From positions 33,913 through 97,912 of the forward strand of contig CAYSUJ010000001.1 in NCBI GenBank assembly GCA_964434285.1: 64,000 bases of DNA, given 5' to 3'. Made by a program: the position numbers and the translations under genes. Shown here in pieces: positions 5,800 to 50,681 of this stretch (position 1 is the first letter of the stretch; every line of letters begins with the position of its first letter). The notes under the pieces were generated by a model. The model did not search any database. It was given only the letters and a program-made list of their open reading frames with translations, and was not told where the DNA came from. Source of the stretch: an uncultured Candidatus Saccharibacteria bacterium (lineage in GTDB: Bacteria > Patescibacteriota > Minisyncoccia > Phycocordibacterales > UBA2100).

Positions 5800-6253
5800 A
5801 GACTGTATCGATGGTGGAAAAACACAGGGCACGAATCGCGTCATACGTCATTTTCGAGCACGGGGGAAAGACATTACTGGCACGATGCTTTCGGACGGGG
5901 TATAAGGACGGTTTCTATCAGATGCCGTCTGACACGTAGAGAATCATGAATATCCCCCAGCAGCTGCAATTCGGGAAGTTAAAGAAGAGGTTGGTGTGGA
6001 TATCGACCCGGAGGATTTGAGATTTCTACACGCCTCATATCGCGTAAATACTGACAAAGCGGGGGACTATGTTGATTTTTTCTTCGCAACCAACAAATGG
6101 AACGGGGATATTGTTAACGCTGATCCAGAAAAGTGCGACGAACTCATCTGGGTATCGCTTGATCAACTCCCTGACAATACAGTGCCGGCCATAAAAGAGG
6201 CTGTCGCTTTCATCCTACACAATACGCCTTTCTCGGAAAATGGGCGGACGTAA
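5800..6253 (+). pseudogene. Nudix hydrolase, disrupted (frameshift or stop near 5905-5932)
   Basis: The C-terminal frame (5933..6253) encodes the Nudix box remnant HVENHEYPPAAAIREVKEEVGV but is truncated by an in-frame TGA at 5930. The N-terminal part lies in another frame (..RGKDITGTMLSDGV*). Confidence 0.5.
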
Positions 6254-6452
6254 TGATGCTCACGCCGTCGCTTGATCAATTTTAAAGCGAATCCTTCGTA
6301 TTGGTGGAACGAGTATGCTTGTGAGGGCGGGAATACCAAGGCGTGGAGCGGCAATACCGTCGCTCATTGGGACGTGCCTGTGGAAATCATGCCGTTTACG
6401 CAAAACTCTTAATGTATACTGAATTGATACTGGCATTTACGGACTCACACTT

Positions 6453-6899
6453 ATGGCCATTATCACGCACGGCACGTATAAGTATCCCTTTATAATCAGG
6501 TGGTTAGTCGGCGCGCCACTCGTCTGGCTTATGATCGTACCTGTCGTTATCTCTGACATTTTTCTTGAAATCTATCATCGGATTGCTTTCCCGATTTTTG
6601 GCATCAAGCTCGTGAAGCGAAGCCAGTATATTCGGGTTTTGGATCGGGAAAAATTGCCGTACCTCACGTGGTATGAGAAAGCGGGGTGCGTGTACTGTGG
6701 CTATGTGAATGGGTGGCTCCATTACGCGTCTGTTATTGCAGGGCGAACACAAAATTATTTCTGTGCGATTGCGCATCTTGAATCACGCGGCTTTATTCCT
6801 TCAGAATATGAAAAATCATTTGCGAAGTACGGCGACGAAGCGGCGTTGCGTCGACGATACGAGCAGCATTATCGGGATTACGGTGCAGGAATAGAATGA
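6453..6899 (+). CDS. hypothetical membrane protein (2 N-terminal TM segments plus a Cys-containing soluble domain)
   Basis: 148-aa ORF. Its stop overlaps the start region of the downstream patatin gene (tga at 6897, ATG at 6901). Confidence 0.5.
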   Translation: MAIITHGTYKYPFIIRWLVGAPLVWLMIVPVVISDIFLEIYHRIAFPIFGIKLVKRSQYIRVLDREKLPYLTWYEKAGCVYCGYVNGWLHYASVIAGRTQNYFCAIAHLESRGFIPSEYEKSFAKYGDEAALRRRYEQHYRDYGAGIE

Positions 6900-8596: not shown

Positions 8597-8896
8597 ATGC
8601 ACATCCAAGTCCCGCACAAAAAGCTGAAAAGTGAGGCAAAACAAAAAATTAAGGACGCCATCGAAGAGGCGCGACCGCACATGCAGGGGCAGGTAGAGGT
8701 CACAAGGGAAGAGTGGCAGGACGACACCCTCCATTTCGCCGTGTCGGTACAAGGTAAGGCGATTACGGGAACGCTCCTTGTGACCGAAACAGATTTTGTC
8801 CTTGACGCAAAGCTCCCCTTGATGTGGCGTATGTTTGAAGGGCGTATTCAGAAAGAAGTGACAAAGCAGGTTGAGCAGATGCGCGGTGGGAGGTAA
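8597..8896 (+). CDS. small protein resembling the 'polyhydroxyalkanoic acid system' family (function unknown)
   Basis: 99 aa. The pattern W..D.LHF.....G....GTL.V.......LDAKL matches my recollection of that family. This is memory-based only. Confidence 0.35.
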   Translation: MHIQVPHKKLKSEAKQKIKDAIEEARPHMQGQVEVTREEWQDDTLHFAVSVQGKAITGTLLVTETDFVLDAKLPLMWRMFEGRIQKEVTKQVEQMRGGR

Positions 8897-38332: not shown

Positions 38333-38362
38333 ATTGACACGCATTCGTGCGTGCTATTACTC
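38333..38362 (+). promoter_or_regulatory. sigma70-like promoter candidate (TTGACA -35; TATTAC/ATTACT -10) with an embedded inverted repeat CACGCA-ttcg-TGCGTG in the spacer
   Basis: Perfect TTGACA at 38333-38338. A -10-like hexamer lies 15-16 nt downstream. A 6-4-6 inverted repeat at 38337-38352 overlaps the spacer. Confidence 0.35.
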
Positions 38363-38453
38363 TAGGAGTGTCACGCGGCGGGGAACGTGCGACACACGAA
38401 ACCCGCATGGTGTATCTCACCATCACTTGTTTATCAGAGAAGCTCAGCACGAC

Positions 38454-38495
38454 GAGCCGGTTTTGTTTTGCGCACGCGCAAAACAAAACCGGCTC
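38454..38495 (+). terminator. perfect 20-bp stem-loop GAGCCGGTTTTGTTTTGCGC-ac-GCGCAAAACAAAACCGGCTC followed by CTTTGTCG (leader attenuator or terminator candidate)
   Basis: Seen directly, about 95 nt downstream of the promoter candidate and 120 nt upstream of the first TasA-like gene. Confidence 0.45.
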
Positions 38496-38615
38496 TTTGT
38501 CGTGAGCGATTGTCGTGGGAACCAACGGTCGATCCCGACAAGGAGTCAGACATTAAAAGTGATTATCAAAATTATCAATGACGGGTTTCCGAAACCCGTC
38601 ACATCAGAAAAAAAT

Positions 38616-39860
38616 ATGACACGAATTCTTAATACGCGAATCCTCGGGGCTCTCGCGATGATCGTGTTCGTGGGTGCAATCGTCGCTTCGTCGACTGGTG
38701 CATTCTTCTCGGACACCGAAACATCAACAGGGAATACGTTTACAGCAGGGGCAATCGATCTCAAGATCGACAGCGTTGCGCACTACAACGGCATGGTGTG
38801 TGCCGCGAATGGCGAGACATACATTTGGGTTCCAAATGCAAGCGCACCGCTTGACCTAGAAACTATGCAGCCAGTTCTCAGTGACCTTATGAACGAACAG
38901 TCTGAATGGGATGCATTCAACACTGCAAACCCGCTTCAGTATCCAAAGGCAGGTGTTGTTTGTACGGGCACATGGCCGCTCGCTGATCTTGGCGACGGCG
39001 AATTGGCTGTTGGTACGTTCTTCGATTTCGACGACATCAAGCCGGGTGACGAGGGTGAAAACACGGTTTCCATCCACATCGACACCAACGACGCATGGAT
39101 GTGTGCTGAGTTGAGCAATGTGGCAGAGGCGGACAACGGTCAGACAGAGCCGGAGGCTCCAGTCGATCCTGACGCAGATGTTGCAGCGGAACTCGATAAC
39201 AACCTCCACTTCTTCGCATGGCGTGACGATGGCGACAATATCTTCGAGGATGGCGAAACGCCACTCGGTGGTCCTGTTGCTGCAAGCACGCTCGTCAACC
39301 AGAAGTGGGCACTTGCTGATTCAACGACGGGCAACGGCCCAATCGTGGGTGACGTGACTTCGTACATCGGTGTGTACTGGTGTGCTGGCACCATCTCGGT
39401 TGTGGGCAACACCCTCAGCTGTAGCGGTGCAGAAATGGGCAACGAAGCTCAGACGGACTCATGGTCTGCTGACCTCTCGTTCTATGTCGAACAGTCTCGT
39501 AACAATGCGAACTTCCGATGTAATCCTGTGACGCAGCCTGAGACGGCTGCTCTGACTGTTGATAAGGAAGTTACGTTTTCTAGCGTGACTCTTGCTGTCG
39601 GTGTTGGCGACTTCACGCTTCACATTAGCAATGGTGCAGGGATTGACCAAGATGTGACTGATGAAACTCAAGTAACTGGCTTGCCAGCAGGAACTTACAC
39701 GGTTACAGAGATCTACACTGGGTCTGAAAACATCACCTTTGACGCAGAGTTTGGGGGTGCTTGTACGGACAACGGTTCAACCGGTTCTGTCACATTGGCA
39801 GAAGGTGATAATCTGACGTGCACAATCACGAACAGTATTTCTCCAGTTGATCCAGTCTAG
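38616..39860 (+). CDS. secreted TasA/CalY(camelysin)-like protein P1 with SipW-cognate signal peptide and C-terminal CnaB/prealbumin-like domain
   Basis: N-terminus MTRILNTRILGALAMIVFVGAIVASSTGAFFSDTETSTGNTFTAGAIDLKIDS. Core motifs KPGDEGENTVSIH, NEPE, AWRDDGDNIFEDGE, YIGVYWCAG and NEAQTD...SFY..QSRNN..FRC are shared with P2-P4. C-terminal GTYTVTE...NLTCTITN domain. The track ORF starts upstream at 38334 and the first ATG consistent with a signal peptide is at 38616. Confidence 0.7.
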   Translation: MTRILNTRILGALAMIVFVGAIVASSTGAFFSDTETSTGNTFTAGAIDLKIDSVAHYNGMVCAANGETYIWVPNASAPLDLETMQPVLSDLMNEQSEWDAFNTANPLQYPKAGVVCTGTWPLADLGDGELAVGTFFDFDDIKPGDEGENTVSIHIDTNDAWMCAELSNVAEADNGQTEPEAPVDPDADVAAELDNNLHFFAWRDDGDNIFEDGETPLGGPVAASTLVNQKWALADSTTGNGPIVGDVTSYIGVYWCAGTISVVGNTLSCSGAEMGNEAQTDSWSADLSFYVEQSRNNANFRCNPVTQPETAALTVDKEVTFSSVTLAVGVGDFTLHISNGAGIDQDVTDETQVTGLPAGTYTVTEIYTGSENITFDAEFGGACTDNGSTGSVTLAEGDNLTCTITNSISPVDPV

Positions 39861-40061: not shown

Positions 40062-41627
40062 ATGGTAAAAACATTACTTAACACTCGAATACTGGCATCG
40101 CTCGCGATGATTGTGTTCGTTGGTGCGGTCGTCGCAAGCTCGACGGGCGCATTCTTCTCCGACACGGAGACCTCCACGGGGAATACCTTCACCGCAGGAG
40201 CAATCGATCTCAAGATTGATAACTCAAGCTATGGGTTTGATTGGAATAATCCTGCAATCGCTTTGGATGAGGCAACGGGTGTCTGGGGTCCGAACGCGGC
40301 AAACTCATGGGAGCTCGCCGATCTCACGAATCAGCTCTTCTTTAGCTTCCGCGACCTGAAGCCGGGGGATTACGGCGAGGACACCATCTCGCTCCACGTG
40401 AACGACAACGATGCCTACGCATGTATGGCGTTCGACCTGACGGGTACTCCTGAAAACGGCCAGAATGAGCCGGAAGCAGCAGTTGACGCAACCGCAGGCG
40501 CAGACGAAGGCGAGTTGCAAAACTACCTCTCGTTCCTCTTCTGGTACGACGATGGCGACAACATTCTTGAAGTGGGCGAACAAGTTATTCCTGAGCTCAG
40601 CGGCGCACCAGGCTCGGTATTCTCCGGCACATGGCTTCCAATTGCTGAAGGTGGCGACACACCGCTTCCGGGTGGCTCCACACAGTACATCGGCAAGGGC
40701 TGGTGCTTCGGTAACATCTCGCCAAATCCTATGGCGCAGGATGGTGTGGGCACAGGTGCTCCAACCGCTGAGACGACAGGCTTTATTTGCTCGGGCGCAG
40801 CGGGTGACCACAACGATGCACAGACAGACGGCATTCAAGTGAACGTCGGTTTCTACGCAGTGCAGTCTCGCAACAACGGACAGTTCCAGTGCGCTGGGTT
40901 GCCACCGTTTGGGGATGCTAATGAGACCCGCACGCAAACTGTAAACCAGGCTGCGCTCGCGCTTGATATCGACGATGTGCTCGCAGATCCAACGTTGTGG
41001 TTCTTCTACAACGACACCGCTCCTGAAGGAATAATGACGATTGACCAATTCAGCGGTGCGGGCGGTGAAAACCACATGGAATCAGTTGATTCTGAAGCAG
41101 GAGCAAAGATGGTGCTCGATACCGGTGTAAATCCTCGCTACAACATTGCGACGGCGCAATTCAGCGATATCTTGGGAACCATCAGCTCGCTTAAGTTCCG
41201 CGTCTATGATGCGACAGCTGATAGCGACACACCGTTCTTGCAGTTCAACGTCGATTTTGCGACAAGCACAATGGGCGTGGGATATCAGGGGCGCTTGACC
41301 ATGCAGCCGGGAACCGGCGGCAATGCCGCGCTTCCTGCAGTAACGTGGACGACGGTAGACGCACAAGGCACTGCAATGTGGACGTGGTCTAAGCTCGCTG
41401 TTGGTCCGGATTTGATTGCGGCAACAGCAGACGACAACACTTGGCCAGATGGTGACACGAATCAATATCGTTCGTGGGACTCTATCGTTGCAGCATTTCC
41501 AGATGCGAAGCTTCTTTCTCCTGGTTCGTTCCTCGGTGTCCGCACTGGGCAGCCGGGGCCAGCCGGAGCAACGAACTTCGTGAGCTCTATCGAGTTTGAT
41601 GGCGTGATCTACGACTTCGAACTCTAG
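40062..41627 (+). CDS. secreted TasA/CalY-like protein P2 with SipW-cognate signal peptide and unique ~300-aa C-terminal domain
   Basis: N-terminus MVKTLLNTRILASLAMIVFVGAVVASSTGAFFSDTETSTGNTFTAGAIDLKIDN. Core motifs KPGDYGEDTISLH, NEPE, WYDDGDNILEVGE, YIGKGWCFG and NDAQTD...FYAVQSRNN..FQC. Confidence 0.7.
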   Translation: MVKTLLNTRILASLAMIVFVGAVVASSTGAFFSDTETSTGNTFTAGAIDLKIDNSSYGFDWNNPAIALDEATGVWGPNAANSWELADLTNQLFFSFRDLKPGDYGEDTISLHVNDNDAYACMAFDLTGTPENGQNEPEAAVDATAGADEGELQNYLSFLFWYDDGDNILEVGEQVIPELSGAPGSVFSGTWLPIAEGGDTPLPGGSTQYIGKGWCFGNISPNPMAQDGVGTGAPTAETTGFICSGAAGDHNDAQTDGIQVNVGFYAVQSRNNGQFQCAGLPPFGDANETRTQTVNQAALALDIDDVLADPTLWFFYNDTAPEGIMTIDQFSGAGGENHMESVDSEAGAKMVLDTGVNPRYNIATAQFSDILGTISSLKFRVYDATADSDTPFLQFNVDFATSTMGVGYQGRLTMQPGTGGNAALPAVTWTTVDAQGTAMWTWSKLAVGPDLIAATADDNTWPDGDTNQYRSWDSIVAAFPDAKLLSPGSFLGVRTGQPGPAGATNFVSSIEFDGVIYDFEL

Positions 41628-43749: not shown

Positions 43750-44718
43750 ATGTCATCTCTCAAACTCTCAATTCGCCTCGTATTCACCGCCGTCATTATG
43801 TCGGCAGTGATACTGGCGTTTGGGTTTAGGAGTGAGGCAACAGGCACGACCTTTGCGACGAAGAAAAAAGGCGAGACATTTGATTTGAAGATTGATAGCA
43901 AGGCTTCGTGGAACGGCGTCTTGCAGCCATCTTCGACGTGGGCCCTGAAGAACCTGAACCCGACGTCAGACAAATTCTTCAATCTTGATGACGTGAAGCC
44001 AGGTGACAGAGGCGAGGCGACGATTTCACTCCACGTAAACAAGGACGCATGGGTGTGTTTGGACTTCGAGAATCTTAAGGAGAAAGAGAATGGCAGAAAT
44101 GAACCAGAACTCCTGGTGGATGATTCTGGTGGCGCAAACTCGGGGGAGCTTGCCGATGGTACCGAATTCTTCGGTTGGCGCGATGATGGCGACAATATCT
44201 TTGAGGTGGGAGAAATTCCGCTCTTCGGTACGTCGACCAACAAACAAGCGGCGACGCAGGTGCTTAATCAAATGACATATCCGCTCGCGGATTCAAAAAC
44301 AGGGAATGCACTTGTAGCATCGACCACACGCTACATTGGGATTGAGTGGTGCGCGGGCGATTTGGAGGTGGATGTGCCCACGGCGACCATCACCTGTGAT
44401 GGCGAGGCTTTGAGGAACGAAGCGCAGACCGATTCCTTCTCCGTGGACATTTCGTTCCGCGCGGTGCCGGTGAAAGACAACAAAAAATTCACCTGCGTGA
44501 AGAAGGGGACGACCTGTGAGTACGGCTGTTCAGGCAACTGTGGCCCCGTCAACGTGACAGTGGACAACAGCGCAACCGTCACAAACACGACGACATCAAA
44601 CTCAAACACGGGCGGCAATTACGCAGGTGGCGGTGGAACGGTCACGACAGGAAACGCATCTTCAACCTCTTCAACGACGAATATCATCAACCAGTTGCGG
44701 CTCTTGATCGGAAGATAA
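43750..44718 (+). CDS. secreted TasA/CalY-like protein P4 (diverged N-terminal signal region; core domain plus S/T/N/G-rich C-terminal tail)
   Basis: The N-terminus has a TM/signal segment and ..GTTFATKKKGETFDLKIDS. Core KPGDRGEATISLH, NEPE, GWRDDGDNIFEVGE, YIGIEWCAG and NEAQTD...FRAV. Tail TNTTTSNSNTGGNYAGGGGTVTTGNASSTSSTTN. An AGAGGAA RBS precedes the start. Confidence 0.6.
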   Translation: MSSLKLSIRLVFTAVIMSAVILAFGFRSEATGTTFATKKKGETFDLKIDSKASWNGVLQPSSTWALKNLNPTSDKFFNLDDVKPGDRGEATISLHVNKDAWVCLDFENLKEKENGRNEPELLVDDSGGANSGELADGTEFFGWRDDGDNIFEVGEIPLFGTSTNKQAATQVLNQMTYPLADSKTGNALVASTTRYIGIEWCAGDLEVDVPTATITCDGEALRNEAQTDSFSVDISFRAVPVKDNKKFTCVKKGTTCEYGCSGNCGPVNVTVDNSATVTNTTTSNSNTGGNYAGGGGTVTTGNASSTSSTTNIINQLRLLIGR

Positions 44719-44724
44719 AACGCT

Positions 44725-45996
44725 ATGTTGAAATTTGTTAACACACTCGTCACAACACTCTTCATCGCAACGATGCTTGGCGTTGCGGGGCTTCTCGTGG
44801 GCTCGATGCTTCCGATTCCTGGCAACATCGAGATCAAGATCGTGAAGTCGGGCTCGATGGAGCCGGCGATCCCAACTGGGTCACTCGTCGTCGTGAAGCC
44901 CTCCGCATCGTTTGCCTACAATGTGGGCGACGTCATCACCTTTGGAGCCGACACGCGAAGCGAGGTGCCGACGACCCACCGCATCGTGGCGGTGGAGGGC
45001 ACGGGCTCAGAGCGAATTTTCGTTACCAAAGGTGACGCGAACGAAGACATCGATCAGGAATCGGTTGCGCTCTCGGAGGTCATCGGAAAGGTGCTCTTTA
45101 GCGTGCCAGGCGCTGGCTATGTGCTCGCGTTTGCGCGGGAACCGCTCGGTTTTGCGCTTCTTGTGGGCATTCCTGCGGGGCTCATCATTCTTGAAGAACT
45201 CATAACGATAGGGAAAGAAGTGCGGGCGGCCGTGCGCAGGCGTCGTGACGAGGAGGATGAGCCGAAAGGCGGCGCAGGCTCGCTCGACGAAGACGGCGCG
45301 CCCCTGCGGCTCTTTTATGGGCGCAGTCGCGTGATGGATGAAATCTTCGTGCCGATGTATCAGAAGCCCAGCTTCTTACACGCGGAGTGGTGGCACAAAC
45401 AATTTCGCATGCACAAAGACACCTATGGCACTTCGACGGCGCTCGTCTTGGGGCTCGTGTTTATGTCTTCCATGATGGTGGGCGGTGCTGGCGGCACCAT
45501 CTCATACTTTAGCGACATAGAGCGCTCGGTGGGCAACATCTTCCGCGCGGGTGAGTGGTTACCGCCAGAGCCGCCGCTCATTGCTGAAGAGATTATTCCT
45601 TTCGCTGCGGTACTTGGCGTAGCGACAGAGAATACGCCCGCTCCTGAAGAAGTCGTGCCCGAAAAGGAACCAGCAACATCTGATTCGGAGGCCGTTATTC
45701 CGGACACTTCTGTGCAGAATGAGGAAGGTAGCGGAAACTCGAACGAAGGGAATCCGAGCTCAAGTATGAGTGAGCCGATTCCGTCGACTGAGCCTCAGCT
45801 GACGCAAGACGAAGGGACCATGGAGTATGATCCGAGCATAGGGTTAGATGGCGAGGTGGAAGAATCTGTAACACAGTCTCCGGATGAAAATCTGCCCCCT
45901 GGTGAAGGTGCATCGTCTCAAGAAACAATCGTGCCCGAAGAGACGCAAGAACCAAACGTGGGTGAACTAGTCGGCGAGGAGATCAGTGTGCTGTGA
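44725..45996 (+). CDS. sipW: signal peptidase I, SipW type (S26B), with a ~250-aa C-terminal extension containing an internal SipW-cognate signal-like motif and an acidic S/E/P-rich tail
   Basis: Catalytic Ser motif KSGSMEPAIPTGSLVVVKP, His motif PTTHRIVAV and TKGDANEDID. After the C-terminal TM (FALLVGIPAGLIILEELI) and RRRRDEEDE comes TSTALVLGLVFMSSMMVGGAGGTISYFSDIERSVGNIFRAGEW. A low-complexity acidic tail runs to the stop. Confidence 0.75.
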   Translation: MLKFVNTLVTTLFIATMLGVAGLLVGSMLPIPGNIEIKIVKSGSMEPAIPTGSLVVVKPSASFAYNVGDVITFGADTRSEVPTTHRIVAVEGTGSERIFVTKGDANEDIDQESVALSEVIGKVLFSVPGAGYVLAFAREPLGFALLVGIPAGLIILEELITIGKEVRAAVRRRRDEEDEPKGGAGSLDEDGAPLRLFYGRSRVMDEIFVPMYQKPSFLHAEWWHKQFRMHKDTYGTSTALVLGLVFMSSMMVGGAGGTISYFSDIERSVGNIFRAGEWLPPEPPLIAEEIIPFAAVLGVATENTPAPEEVVPEKEPATSDSEAVIPDTSVQNEEGSGNSNEGNPSSSMSEPIPSTEPQLTQDEGTMEYDPSIGLDGEVEESVTQSPDENLPPGEGASSQETIVPEETQEPNVGELVGEEISVL

Positions 45997-46096: not shown

Positions 46097-46519
46097 GTGT
46101 GGAATATCGTTATTTCAATACTCATGATGCTGTCCACCTTCTCACAGGCGGCGGCTGAAGCCTCGATCGAAAGCACTTTCGCAGAGTACGGCATTCAGGT
46201 GCAGATCGACAGTGCGGTCCGATGCGGGCGTGCTCAAGGCGAATGCGAGGCCAAGCGAATCATCGTCGTGACTGGTGTCTCATGCAATAGTCCGGCTGAT
46301 TCGCTTGGGGTGGAAGTGGGCGATATCGTTATCGGCCATGGCAACGCCACAATCGAAACTGAGAATGGTCCATCGGAGAAAGCGCTGTTCTTCAGATTGT
46401 GTTGCTTCGGCACACAAATGGCCGCGTGCGGTATATCATCCAATGGTTGGAAAAGCGCCCGTTCGACAATGATGCAGAAAACGTCCGTTGTGGGCGTCCA
46501 GGAAGTCGCATATAAGTGA
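46097..46519 (+). CDS. hypothetical secreted Cys-rich protein, possibly PDZ-like
   Basis: GTG start with an AAAGGAG RBS. Signal peptide ...TFSQAAAEA. Six Cys. GVEVGDIVIG resembles a PDZ carboxylate-binding region. Confidence 0.4.
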   Translation: MWNIVISILMMLSTFSQAAAEASIESTFAEYGIQVQIDSAVRCGRAQGECEAKRIIVVTGVSCNSPADSLGVEVGDIVIGHGNATIETENGPSEKALFFRLCCFGTQMAACGISSNGWKSARSTMMQKTSVVGVQEVAYK

Positions 46520-47130: not shown

Positions 47131-47173
47131 AATGCGGTTGCGCGCAGATTCCATCCTTCCAAAATTTTTAACC

Positions 47174-47608
47174 ATGTTCATCGGGGAATACGAACACACA
47201 CTTGATGATAAAAGCCGCGTCTCTCTCCCGAGGCAGTTCCGTACGGGTCTCGGGAGGAAGGTGGTCATGACGCGAGGCTTAGACAATTGTTTGTTCGTCT
47301 ACTCTCGTTCGAGTTGGGAGAAAGTGGCCGCAAAGTTGCAGGAACTTTCTTTCGCTCAAGCAGATACGCGCGGCTTCAATCGCTTCATTCTTTCAGGTGC
47401 AGCGGAGGTCGAGGTGGATTCTGCCGGACGCGTGCTTATTCCAGAACACCAACGGGCTTTTGCAGGACTCACCAAGAATTGTGTCTTTGCAGGAGTTTCC
47501 GACCGGGTCGAGGTGTGGGATGCAAAGCGTTGGAACGAATACAAGGCGGCTATCGAAAAGAAAGCAGACGCTTTGGCGGAGAAGCTTGGTGAGGTGGGCG
47601 CGCTCTAA
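47174..47608 (+). CDS. mraZ: transcriptional regulator MraZ
   Basis: MFIGEYEHTLDDKSRVSLP and a second DxxxR repeat (duplicated MraZ domain). The track ORF starts at 47132. Confidence 0.85.
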   Translation: MFIGEYEHTLDDKSRVSLPRQFRTGLGRKVVMTRGLDNCLFVYSRSSWEKVAAKLQELSFAQADTRGFNRFILSGAAEVEVDSAGRVLIPEHQRAFAGLTKNCVFAGVSDRVEVWDAKRWNEYKAAIEKKADALAEKLGEVGAL

Positions 47609-47637
47609 GCGGGCTCGGGTTGCTAGAGGACATCGTC

Positions 47638-48591
47638 ATGCGCACGCGACGTAATAAATCCTCTAGCTACCCGATGCCGTTTCGGCATCGCGATGTGGTT
47701 CAAAGGGAAGCGAGTCACATTAGTGTTCTTTCAAATGAGATTGTTTCAGGGCTTGCACTACAGGAGGCGGATGTCGTTCTTGATGCAACGCTCGGCGGCG
47801 CAGGACACGCGCGCATGATCTGTGAGAAACTCGGGAAGCAGGGAATCTTTCTGGGAATCGACGCAGATAGTGCAGCGATCACGCGAGCCGAGGTGGCACT
47901 CAAAGGCGTCGAGCCTCGTGTAATCATTCGTCAGGGAAACTTTCGGAATCTCGTGCACGTTGCACGCGAAGCCGGCGTTCCCGCTCTCAGGAAGGCGCTA
48001 TTCGACCTTGGCTGGAGCGGATTTCAGCTCGCGGAAGGGAAAGGGTTTTCCTTTCTTGCCGACGAGCCACTTCTCATGACCTATGGCGAGCCCGTGGAAG
48101 GCGTACTCACCGCGCGCGAGATTGTGAACACGTGGGAAGAAGAATCATTGATGCACGTGTTCGAGGGTTGGGGAGAAGAAGCGCATGCTGGACGCATCGC
48201 GCGCGGTATCGTCGAAGCGAGACGCGAAAAGCCAGTAGAAACGGCACGCGAGCTTGCCGAGATTGTGCGCTCGTCGGTGCCTGTGTGGTATCGCAAGGGC
48301 CATACCCATCCCGCGACGAAGACATTCCAAGCACTTCGCATCGCGGTGAATGACGAAATGGGTGCTTTGAAGGAGGGAATCACGGGGGCGTGGGAGATGC
48401 TTGCGAAAGGCGGTCGCCTTGCTGTCATCACCTTTCACTCAACCGAGGATCGCGAGGTGAAGCGCTTATTCAACCAGTTTGTGACTGAAGGCGGAGTGCT
48501 CTTTACCAAAAAGCCTCAGAAACCATCTCGAGAAGAACTTAGAACAAATCCCCGTGCGCGAAGTGCGAAACTTAGAATCATTACAAAATAG
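47638..48591 (+). CDS. rsmH: 16S rRNA (cytosine1402-N4)-methyltransferase RsmH (MraW)
   Basis: HISVLSNEIVSGL...DATLGGAGHA SAM-binding motif. Located in the dcw cluster. A TTG alternative start lies at 47620. Confidence 0.85.
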   Translation: MRTRRNKSSSYPMPFRHRDVVQREASHISVLSNEIVSGLALQEADVVLDATLGGAGHARMICEKLGKQGIFLGIDADSAAITRAEVALKGVEPRVIIRQGNFRNLVHVAREAGVPALRKALFDLGWSGFQLAEGKGFSFLADEPLLMTYGEPVEGVLTAREIVNTWEEESLMHVFEGWGEEAHAGRIARGIVEARREKPVETARELAEIVRSSVPVWYRKGHTHPATKTFQALRIAVNDEMGALKEGITGAWEMLAKGGRLAVITFHSTEDREVKRLFNQFVTEGGVLFTKKPQKPSREELRTNPRARSAKLRIITK

Positions 48592-48605
48592 ATATCACAT
48601 ATTGT

Positions 48606-48938
48606 ATGCAGACACAGCACATTTCCATACGACTCGACGCGTTTCCTGGAGAACAGCATGCTCTTCGAGTGTTGGGTCTTGCGATTGTTGGATCCGCCTT
48701 TGCTTATGTCTTGCTTGTGTCATTTTCAATCATGAATGTGATAGCATATCGCGAAGCAGTCGCGGCAACTGAGAGTCTTCGAACAAGTGTTAGTATGCTG
48801 GAACAAGACTATTTTGAGCTCTCAAGTCAGGTAGATCAAGAGGCGGCAACCAGTCTTGGACTCGTTCCGGTGTCCGAACAAACATTCGTCCGCGAGCCAA
48901 GTTCGCTGGGAGATGCATGGAGACCAAGTGCTCTCTAA
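48606..48938 (+). CDS. FtsL-like cell division membrane protein
   Basis: Small single-TM protein with a coiled-coil-like periplasmic tail, in the canonical position between rsmH and ftsI. Confidence 0.45.
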   Translation: MQTQHISIRLDAFPGEQHALRVLGLAIVGSAFAYVLLVSFSIMNVIAYREAVAATESLRTSVSMLEQDYFELSSQVDQEAATSLGLVPVSEQTFVREPSSLGDAWRPSAL

Positions 48939-48965
48939 TTCGCTTCCGTCGCGTATACTACTCAC

Positions 48966-50681
48966 ATGCGTGCACGACTTGTGCTTCGGGCGAGACTCCT
49001 CTCGCTGGTTATGGTTTTTGTTGCTATCGTGCTCGTAGCTCGTTTGTACCAGCTCCAAATTATTCGCGGAGATGACTATGCTCGTAAAGCGGAGGGGCAA
49101 TATATGGAGGCAGTGACCGATGAAGCGCCTCGCGGCGAGATTTTTTTTAGAAAAAAAGGTGGTGAGCGTGTTGCGGCTGCGCTCATGCAAAATGGCTGGC
49201 GCGTCGCAATGGACCCTCGCGCTCTTGAAGATGTTGATGACGCGCTGCAAAAACTTTCGGCTATTGTTACAGTCGACGAAGCACGATTTAAAACAAGTGC
49301 TGCACGGAAGAATGATCCCTACGAGGATATCGTCTTTAAGCTAGATGATCGGCAGGCAAAAGCAGTAAGAGAGGCCGACATTCCAGGAATATTTACTGTA
49401 CGTGATGAGTGGCGGTTCTATCCAGCGGAACGTCTAGCTGCGCATGCCCTTGGCTTTGTGAGTTATCGTGGCACGCGAAAAGAAGGAGTGTATGGCCTCG
49501 AACGATACTGGGAGCATGTTTTGCGCCATGAAGGCAGCGGGCTCTATGTGAATCCCTTTGCAGAAATATTTTCAGATCTCGGGGCATTGGTTGTGGACCC
49601 CTCAAAGCAAGAGGGGAGTGTTGTTACTTCGCTCGAACCTATTGCACAAAGAGAACTTGAAAACACCATCGCGAAAGTGGTCGAAGCCTATAGTCCGCGT
49701 TCTGCGGGGGGCATAGTGATGGATCCGAAAAATGGTGAAATTTATGCGCTTGCAATAGCACCGAATTTCGATCCCAACACCTTCAATCTCGTGGATGACG
49801 TGGGCATCTTTTCCAACCCCTTAGTGGAGCGGAGGTATGAAATGGGATCAATCGTAAAGCCTTTGACGATCGCCGCTGCAATCGATGCGGGTGCAATCAC
49901 GCCACATACAACATATGAGGACAAAGGCTGCATCACAAAATCGGGTTACAAACTATGTAATTTCGATTTTAGAGGTCGTGGCGTTGTGCCGATGCAAGAG
50001 GTGCTCTCGCAGTCCTTGAACACCGGCGTTTCCTTTGCGGTGGACAAGATGGGTAATGCAGCCTTCGCTGACTATATGAAGCGATTCGGTTTGGGCGAAG
50101 AAACTGGCATTGATCTACCAGGAGAAATTGCAGGTGCCATCGATTCGCTTTTTGTGCAGGGGGCGGCCGATGTGGACTTCGCTTCGGCATCGTTCGGGCA
50201 GTCCATCGCGATCACGCCGATTGCAATGATTAGAGCGCTTGCCGCACTCGCTAATGGTGGCGTAATACCAGAGCCACATGTCGCTACGGCCATTCGCACC
50301 GAGTCTGGCATTGAGCGCCGTATCATCATTCCTCAGGGTGAGCGTGTCTTAAAACCCGAGACAGCTGAAACAGTTACGAATATGCTCGTGAAGGTATATG
50401 ACGACGCATTGTTAGAGGGCGTGTTGAAACAAGAGCATTATTCCATTGCGGCGAAAACAGGCACTGCTCAAATCGCAATCCCTGGCGGCGGCGGCTATTA
50501 TACAGATCGCTGGCTCCATTCATTTTTTGGCTACTTCCCTGCATACGAACCGCGGTTCATTGTTTTGCTCTACGCCATCGAGCCGCATAATGAACAATAC
50601 GCTTCGCGCACCCTTGCGCGGCCATTCGACGAACTCGCAAAGTTTTTAATCAACTACTACGAGATTCCACCGGATCGATAG
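48966..50681 (+). CDS. ftsI: penicillin-binding protein 2 / FtsI-type transpeptidase
   Basis: N-terminal TM and dimerisation domain. Transpeptidase motifs GSIVKP (SxxK), SLNTG (SxN) and AKTGTAQ (KTG). Confidence 0.8.
   Translation: MRARLVLRARLLSLVMVFVAIVLVARLYQLQIIRGDDYARKAEGQYMEAVTDEAPRGEIFFRKKGGERVAAALMQNGWRVAMDPRALEDVDDALQKLSAIVTVDEARFKTSAARKNDPYEDIVFKLDDRQAKAVREADIPGIFTVRDEWRFYPAERLAAHALGFVSYRGTRKEGVYGLERYWEHVLRHEGSGLYVNPFAEIFSDLGALVVDPSKQEGSVVTSLEPIAQRELENTIAKVVEAYSPRSAGGIVMDPKNGEIYALAIAPNFDPNTFNLVDDVGIFSNPLVERRYEMGSIVKPLTIAAAIDAGAITPHTTYEDKGCITKSGYKLCNFDFRGRGVVPMQEVLSQSLNTGVSFAVDKMGNAAFADYMKRFGLGEETGIDLPGEIAGAIDSLFVQGAADVDFASASFGQSIAITPIAMIRALAALANGGVIPEPHVATAIRTESGIERRIIIPQGERVLKPETAETVTNMLVKVYDDALLEGVLKQEHYSIAAKTGTAQIAIPGGGGYYTDRWLHSFFGYFPAYEPRFIVLLYAIEPHNEQYASRTLARPFDELAKFLINYYEIPPDR

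Follow-up and report, generated by a model that had tools for sequence, protein, structure and literature searches.

We analyzed a stretch of 64,000 nucleotides from an uncultured Candidatus Saccharibacteria bacterium (assembly GCA_964434285.1, contig CAYSUJ010000001.1, positions 33,913 to 97,912 of the forward strand), which we refer to as the window. Within it, a single open reading frame (ORF) joins a SipW-type signal peptidase to a module, here called X, that resembles a substrate of such an enzyme. Signal peptidases are normally stand-alone proteins, either housekeeping or dedicated enzymes. An earlier note on this DNA described an uninterrupted ORF of 423 codons with a peptidase core, a basic stretch, a second hydrophobic segment after the core and an acidic tail, and all of these are present. 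The parts of the gene are as follows (window positions; TM, transmembrane helix).

44725..45996, + strand: fusion ORF, SipW-type signal peptidase plus substrate module X, 423 codons plus stop
44725..45219, + strand: peptidase part, residues 1-165, with TM1 (about 4-28), an extracytoplasmic catalytic beta domain (S44, H85, D104) and TM2 (about 140-165)
45220..45429, + strand: predicted cytoplasmic linker, residues 166-235 (70 aa), with RRRRDEEDE, a conserved LRLxYxRxRxMDEIFVPM element, then WWHKQFRMHKD before TM3
45430..45504, + strand: TM3, residues 236-260, a signal-peptide-like h-region and a c-region rich in Gly, up to the predicted cleavage site T258-I259-S260/Y261 (the slash marks the bond to be cut)
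45505..45558, + strand: donor-strand-like motif YFSDIERSVGNIFRAGEW, residues 261-278, the predicted N-terminus of the released product
45559..45993, + strand: acidic Pro/Glu/Ser/Thr-rich tail, residues 279-423, fast-evolving, with a short conserved [GA][EA]VLG element inside

The fusion gene and its conservation

By sequence profile, the enzyme is a member of the archaeal and endoplasmic reticulum (ER)-type signal peptidase family and is not an orthologue of Bacillus SipW by NCBI's cutoff. Residues 9-161 match TIGR02228 (archaeal/ER-type signal peptidase) at 99.3 bits (cutoff, 51.85), as do all 82 aligned homologues, and residues 3-179 match the Bacillus SipW model NF046067 at 102.7 bits, under the equivalog cutoff of 190. 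SipW is Ser/His-dependent, and enzymes of this family have their catalytic Ser and His in conserved SGSMEP and HR boxes, with no catalytic Lys. S44 (in SGSMEP), H85 (HRIV) and D104 (GDAN) are invariant in the alignment of 82 homologues.

Beyond the peptidase, RRRRDEEDE occupies residues 171-179, the third hydrophobic segment residues 236-257 and TISYFSDIERSVGNIFRAGEW residues 258-278. The LRLxYxRxRxMDEIFVPM element of the linker is conserved among homologues. The only sequence after the motif is of low complexity, with no Pfam match in the window protein. Residues 283-423 (141 aa) contain 33 Asp and Glu against a single Lys or Arg, with 19% Glu, 13% Pro and 11% Ser and an isoelectric point of 4.05.

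The fusion ORF is a real, conserved gene. The ORF has no internal stop and the reading frame is unbroken between the two parts, where the earlier note had advised looking for a missed frameshift or stop. A second assembly (L086, run SRR14932609) is identical at 2272 of 2272 bases, and a 404-aa orthologue (P0004) is present on 13 contigs. Three close relatives, L001 (GCA_022842645.1), L003 and L004, have 79-83% protein identity to the window gene and keep the single frame, at synonymous divergence (dS) from 0.65 to beyond saturation, depending on the region. All close relatives have the fusion. Among the best homologues from a collection of 5.8 billion proteins, about 108 of 120 combine peptidase, helix and motif in one chain. 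The concern that the fusion might be missing from related genomes therefore does not hold. The fused homologues that carry names are from Kaiserbacteria, Parcubacteria, Minisyncoccia, Pacebacteria or "Patescibacteria group", and their database label is only "signal peptidase I". Thus, the fusion architecture is solidly established and widespread.

Ratios of nonsynonymous to synonymous substitution rates (dN/dS), calculated by the Nei-Gojobori method for the window gene and the three close relatives, indicate purifying selection on the frame on both sides of the junction:

Peptidase: 0.055-0.068
Linker (166-235): 0.06-0.15
38 codons upstream of Met204: 0.10-0.23
TM3 plus motif: 0.03-0.09

The low ratio in the linker indicates that the linker is translated in this frame. 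The tail evolves rapidly, with dN of 0.5-0.94 and many insertions and deletions between close relatives.

The substrate motif and free forms of the module

The motif after TM3 was proposed in the earlier note to be of the type found in SipW substrates, and the match survives comparison with profile hidden Markov models (HMMs). TIGR04088 (SipW-dependent-type signal peptide) aligns with residues 252-278 of the window protein at 17.5 bits (E 0.0034; cutoff, 19) and is found at E<=0.01 in 33 of 82 fused homologues (best E, 1.4e-7). A second profile was built from free substrates only, 132 distinct proteins encoded upstream of sipW in related loci. It matches residues 255-276 of the window protein at 31.1 bits, and the highest score among 5,000 shuffles of the protein was 6.6. 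The match is far beyond chance. In the homologue alignment, N271 and A275 never vary, and conservation reaches 90% or more at Y261, F262, D264, E266 and S268.

The window protein is like TIGR04088 proteins in having a hydrophobic helix followed by a GGT.[SA]/YF.D.E.S.GN.F.AG motif, and in being encoded with a SipW-type peptidase, here one to which it is fused. However, the motif is not at the N-terminus of a precursor. It is internal (residues 236-278), after the cognate peptidase and a linker, and this position is a new feature.

We took the register of the cleavage site from TasA. The TasA site GGTWA/AF, which has been studied experimentally, carries Thr, Ala and Phe at P3, P1 and P2', respectively, and is processed by the ER-type peptidase SipW (PMC10269814). 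The window site in the same register is T258-I259-S260/Y261-F262, and GGAGGTISYFSDIER is the stretch that spans it in the uncleaved chain. Conservation around the site in 109 fused homologues is as follows.

P-3: Thr, 107/109
P-1: Ser 64, Ala 43 (together 107/109)
P+1: Tyr, 106/109
P+2: Phe, 97/109
P+4: Asp, 103/109
P+6: Glu, 107/109
P+8: Ser, 106/109
P+11: Asn, 108/109
P+15: Ala, 108/109

P-8, P-5 and P-4 are mostly Gly in the fused homologues, giving a helix-breaking c-region. Free proteins follow the same pattern (135 upstream substrates and 40 X proteins), and the conserved residues of the predicted mature N-terminus of X (P+1 to P+16) are those of the upstream subunits. X, fused or free, is set apart from the other substrates by Tyr at P+1 and a hydrophobic residue at P-2. 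The signature of free substrates, both at the cleavage site and in the donor strand, is thus complete in the fused module.

Most related Patescibacteria encode X as a gene of its own, next to sipW on its downstream side. We scanned one genome per GTDB species, which gave 80 Patescibacteria loci (some of the records carry other automatic names), and five loci had been fetched earlier. Together these 85 loci contain 88 peptidase ORFs, arranged as follows.

Motif-bearing gene directly after, and often overlapping, sipW: 51/88
Fused: 19/88
Neither arrangement: 18/88

These free-standing genes bear out the suggestion in the earlier note that the C-terminal part of the window gene is a substrate-type module. 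The free X proteins of L005, L010, L017, L021 and L080 each have their own N-terminal signal-peptide-like helix and the same motif. For example, L005 encodes a peptidase of 232 aa, and the next gene, X, overlaps it by 16 nt (8684..8699) in a different frame. In the L005 X protein, MEKAVIQYNEARARLMMDIIPPV leads into a helix and then ASTTISYFSDSELSALNSMSAGILNF, after which come about 150 aa of beta-rich domain and the acidic tail. The free X proteins of L010, L017 and L021 resemble it, with or without a lamin-tail domain (LTD, PF00932), and that of L080 is minimal, with a helix, a degenerate motif, GGEVAG and an acidic tail. Pfam matches in the free X proteins and the upstream genes taken together were limited to the signal-peptide region of PF12389, SpaA_2 and the LTD, and the beta domain of X has no Pfam assignment. 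The R.R.MDEIFVPM element of the window linker corresponds to the N-terminal region of free X (RLMMDIIPPV, RQRMTDGVFAPH, LSDMFVPH), which indicates that the window gene is sipW fused to its downstream neighbor X.

The extracellular part of the module varies among the fused homologues. In many of them an LTD is inserted between the motif and the acidic tail, and in more distant ones a beta-rich domain of about 150 aa takes its place after the motif. A short element, [GA][EA]VLG[EAT][ST] (AAVLGVA in the window protein, residues 294-300, 45604..45624), is kept in most fused homologues and in the free X of L080. It lies just before the acidic tail, after the LTD where there is one, and is modeled as a short helix at 292-297.

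In a neighbor-joining tree of the peptidase domains, fused forms make up no fewer than three separate clades, with split forms between them; the tree is rough and without support values, and the number of fusion events is approximate. One fused clade is Microgenomates-like (records titled Chisholmbacteria and Woesebacteria) and has an LTD after the motif. The interspersed fused and split forms point to a recurrent fusion of an enzyme gene with a substrate gene. With an overlap such as the 16 nt in L005, one frameshift-type event could interconvert the split and fused states, which fits repeated fusion and fission on the tree. One fused ORF, in L082 at about 5806..6861 (record titled Woesebacteria), has a masked run, read as X (the residue code), inside the linker.

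Upstream genes and the surrounding region

The earlier note counted four upstream substrates with the motif AFFSDTETS.GN.FTAG. Three of the genes have it, and the fourth is a paralogue that lacks the motif.

38616..39860, + strand: free SipW-type substrate 1, motif-HMM match at residues 111-149 of the stop-to-stop frame from 38319
40062..41627, + strand: free SipW-type substrate 2 (521 aa), TIGR04088 24.3 bits
41745..43694, + strand: free SipW-type substrate 3 (649 aa), TIGR04088 34.4 bits, with the motif, the shared N-terminal domain and SpaA_2 prealbumin-like domains
43750..44718, + strand: motif-less paralogue of the fiber-subunit domain (322 aa), directly upstream of the fusion, a candidate acceptor-only subunit

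The listed ORF for substrate 1 (38334..39860) starts at TTG 38334, and its signal peptide and motif begin at ATG 38616 (MTRILNTRILGAL). This ATG is probably the true start, and roughly the first 94 codons of the listed ORF are probably non-coding. The starts at 38616, 40062, 41745, 43750 and 44725 have A/T-rich leaders with little or no Shine-Dalgarno sequence, which makes the Shine-Dalgarno sequence unreliable for start calls here. In substrate 2, the shared domain was matched at E 3e-50 by a profile of proteins homologous to the 43750..44718 product. Substrate 3 matches PF19403 (E 1.4e-16) and PF12389 (23.5 bits). The shared N-terminal domain of the upstream genes has no Pfam assignment.

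The motif-less gene has lost the FFSDTETS part of the motif and kept only TG.TFA...DLKID. It is more conserved than the peptidase, with 60-88% identity in many relatives, and it immediately precedes the peptidase in 14 of the 19 fused loci, compared with 7 of the 69 other peptidase ORFs. Its C-terminal region is highly conserved, rich in Asn, Gly, Thr and Ser (TTTSSSNTGGN.AG.GGTV.TGNASSTSSTTNI) and modeled as disordered.

The operon lies downstream of uvrC, ddl and a GtrA-like gene. After the fusion gene there is a gene for a small secreted-looking protein of 140 aa (46097..46519, + strand), and syntenic genes in L001, L002 and L004 encode a PDZ domain (PF00595). A division and cell-wall (dcw) cluster with mraZ, rsmH, an ftsL-like gene and a penicillin-binding protein transpeptidase gene (47132..50681, + strand) follows immediately downstream of the operon, and L001 to L003 keep this synteny on both sides. 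The contig of the closest relative also has a reverse-transcriptase gene (RVT_1), located a few kb downstream of the dcw cluster (L001 16596..17215; L002 10102..10721, - strand).

Proposed processing of the fusion and possible roles in fiber assembly

The locus is similar in several ways to the tapA-sipW-tasA operon of B. subtilis. In both, a dedicated ER/archaeal-type peptidase is encoded with its substrates, and the substrates have a GGT-x-[AS]/aromatic-F-x-D motif in which the first mature residues are, or here may be, the donor strand. TapA is a minor component that supplies only the priming strand and has a disordered acidic C-terminus, and its gene overlaps sipW (PMC10151520, PMC9674648, PMC10269814). 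In the TasA fiber, each next subunit is completed by a donor strand formed by the first 11 residues of mature TasA (28-38), and TapA, with an N-terminus similar to that of TasA, has been proposed to supply the first strand (PMC9674648). A tapA1-57 strain, which secretes only TapA residues 44-57 (the first 14 mature residues), still forms biofilm, and the overlap of the tapA stop codon with the sipW start codon has been taken as a hint of association (PMC10151520).

In contrast to B. subtilis, the nucleator-like module in the window is covalently attached to the C-terminus of the peptidase through a predicted cytoplasmic linker and a third helix. The module has no folded domain, the gene order is pilins and then sipW::X, the peptidase scores under the Bacillus SipW equivalog cutoff, and the host is an ultra-small patescibacterium (from the candidate phyla radiation, CPR). 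Beyond the short motif, no sequence or fold homology to TapA, which has an Ig-like central domain, was found, and the resemblance would be one of function and not of family membership. The short C-tail of B. subtilis SipW, cited in the earlier note as a precedent for an extended functional tail, is only a loose analogy, since the extension here is a whole second gene.

The predicted topology places the motif where the enzyme could act on it. An AlphaFold2 (AF2) model of residues 1-300 (82-sequence alignment; mean predicted local distance difference test score, pLDDT, 78) has helices at 2-28 and 140-177 (pLDDT about 90 for these two) and at 233-254. Hydropathy peaks on the Kyte-Doolittle scale at 17, 153 and 248 match TM1, TM2 and TM3. 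The catalytic domain is flanked by the N-terminal and C-terminal membrane helices of the peptidase, the linker is modeled as a beta hairpin (196-212) and a helix (217-226), and the region after the motif is disordered. The linker has 14 Lys and Arg. Basic residues are concentrated right behind TM2 (6 in residues 164-180) and just ahead of TM3 (3 in residues 222-236), in keeping with the positive-inside rule. We infer that TM1 runs in-to-out, the catalytic domain is outside, TM2 runs out-to-in and the linker of about 70 aa is cytoplasmic, with TM3 running in-to-out. The basic residues after TM2 and before TM3 indicate that TM3 should insert N-in/C-out, like a signal peptide, and T258-I259-S260/Y261-F262 should therefore be at the outer face of the membrane, on the side of the catalytic domain and next to the active site.

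The earlier note had offered self-processing as one reading. It is the most likely one, and we infer both the cut, from the conserved P-3 and P-1 residues and the topology, and the primer or cap role that might follow from it. Cleavage itself appears to be under selection, because residues upstream of the scissile bond that have no role in a donor strand are conserved.

We lean, with somewhat more belief than doubt, toward a model in which the peptidase frees the C-terminal part of its own chain as a primer or cap, similar to TapA and donor-strand-only, for fibers of TasA-like type made from the upstream genes. The gene would be a natural fusion of two neighbors in a TasA-like donor-strand fiber operon, a dedicated SipW/archaeal-type peptidase and X, which codes for an exported protein of small size whose long N-region is cytoplasmic and is followed by a helix like that of a signal peptide and by a SipW-cognate motif. 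The peptidase, acting in cis or from a neighboring molecule, would cut after Ser260. This would leave the enzyme as a membrane protein of 260 residues with three TM helices and release a product of 163 residues. The first 11 residues of the product (YFSDIERSVGN) would correspond to the TasA/TapA donor strand, and the rest, IFRAGEW and the acidic disordered tail, would have no beta-sandwich of its own. Because it has no folded domain, the product could donate a strand and could not accept one, which fits a role like that of TapA, here the priming or capping of fibers of the three motif-bearing upstream proteins. The motif-less paralogue may be the complementary, acceptor-only end subunit. The location of a subunit without a donor strand next to a donor-only module suggests that the two are the ends of one fiber. 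The fusion would guarantee 1:1 co-production and co-localization of the processing enzyme and the fiber initiator.

Several points weigh against this model. The TIGR04088 score of the window protein is just under the cutoff (17.5 vs 19). Conservation of P-3 and P-1 could in principle serve binding in the active site without cleavage. In the AF2 monomer the motif is not docked in the active site, and residues 258-271 are disordered (pLDDT <50); the undocked motif is no evidence either way on cleavage. The PF12389 (camelysin) matches of the upstream genes, at 19.1 and 23.5 bits (cutoff, 22.5), span only profile positions 17-50, the signal-peptide region. The TapA-like role is an analogy, with sequence likeness to TapA limited to a short motif, and no fibers have been reported for these organisms in the searchable literature.

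One alternative, possible although rather unlikely, is that TM3 is stable and the chain is not cut. The donor-strand motif, tethered to the peptidase, would insert in the groove of the first subunit, and the peptidase would be the membrane base and assembly platform of the fiber, with the acidic tail pointing outward. The topology puts the motif at the outer face beside the site of pilin-precursor processing, and the module has a donor strand and no acceptor domain. In addition, TapA has been reported to co-localize with the membrane (PMC10151520), and the arrangement echoes the proposed anchor subunits of archaeal Tafi loci (PMC12337348). However, the helix is N-terminal in free X orthologues, as it is in an ordinary signal peptide that can be cleaved, and fused proteins and free substrates show equal conservation of the residues that serve only cleavage, namely Thr at P-3, Ser or Ala at P-1 and the helix-breaking, Gly-rich c-region. 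Furthermore, a donor strand held at the membrane by its N-terminal end would have a constrained binding geometry. A fuller version, to which we give similarly little credence, has the peptidase as assembly platform and membrane base, the tethered strand priming the first subunit before or instead of cleavage, the motif-less neighbor as the distal acceptor-only tip, and the LTD and acidic tails as host-contact elements.

It is improbable that the ORF makes two proteins, with an internal start (Met204, Met211 or Met229, at 45334, 45355 and 45409, respectively) producing an X precursor and the full-length fusion being minor or non-functional. The Met of MDEIF, which the earlier note had proposed as an internal start, is Met204, located at 45334. 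It is nearly invariant in the clade of the window protein, the sequence MHKDTYG...TM...motif would resemble a normal signal peptide, and X is a separate gene in many relatives. However, residues 166-203 are under purifying selection in frame (dN/dS 0.10-0.23) and conserved across the clade, which indicates that they are translated, and Met204, Met211 and Met229 lack both a Shine-Dalgarno sequence and an A/T-rich leader like those of the other starts in the window. The equivalent Met in the split L005 locus lies 15-16 codons inside the X ORF, and its conservation is thus not due to start-codon function. Distant fused forms have no conserved Met at this position. These findings make an internal start unlikely.

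Equally doubtful is the idea that the tethered motif is a pseudo-substrate or auto-inhibitor that sits uncut in the substrate groove and controls how the real substrates gain entry. A substrate-like motif is tethered at high local concentration, and TasA-type sites bind the non-cognate peptidase LepB tightly and are slowly released (PMC10269814). However, P-1 and P-3 are canonical for cleavage by the cognate enzyme, large and variable extracellular domains (LTD, beta domain, acidic tail) would be pointless for a plug, and free versions of X exist. Lastly, an assembly or frameshift artefact joining two genes, an idea that gains something from the split form being commoner in related genomes and its genes often overlapping, can be rejected with near certainty given the identical second assembly, the selected frame and about 108 fused homologues that are independent protein clusters from many samples.

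The self-processing model can also be compared with other fiber systems. Archaeal loci of the TasA superfamily (ABP, Tafi, AbpX) similarly combine an operon for jelly-roll donor-strand subunits with a dedicated TIGR02228 peptidase. They contain genes for tip, minor pilin and membrane-anchor proteins, with AbpB a proposed initiator and TafF a proposed anchor (PMC9245690, PMC12337348), and homologues of PF12389 occur in Patescibacteria (PMC9245690). Signal peptidases fused to an accessory module have been described, as DUF5305-SPase I fusions (bioRxiv 10.64898/2026.01.04.697558). In contrast to the window gene, the fusions reported there are to an accessory subunit and not to a substrate, and the anchors are separate proteins with their own jelly-roll domain. 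A signal peptidase in one chain with its own substrate is not described in the searchable literature on SipW, TasA or camelysin, in Patescibacteria/CPR or as fusions.

Chaperone-usher pili have specialized ends, a FimH-type tip without a donor strand and a PapH-type terminator. The predicted ends of the fiber in the window would be similar, one without a donor strand and one unable to accept. The proteins and the export route are unrelated, however, and here a short peptide followed by a disordered tail would serve as the donor-only element.

As a Rosetta-stone link, the fusion ties a SipW-type peptidase to one specific substrate, apparently a donor-strand-only one. It supports a coupling of fiber initiation to the processing enzyme, an idea that so far has come from B. 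subtilis TapA. The locus is also a self-contained system, with one ORF and one catalytic Ser, for studying the specificity of ER-type signal peptidases through a simple cleavage read-out. If the peptidase is instead an assembly platform, it would physically nucleate and anchor a surface filament in the cell-wall-poor Patescibacteria, and the locus would encode a minimal pilus machine based on a fused enzyme and substrate and lacking chaperone, usher and sortase. Patescibacteria are thought to live attached to host cells. Many of them carry a compact operon for putative TasA-like fibers, with clear candidates for the end subunits, and such operons may be relevant to that attachment.

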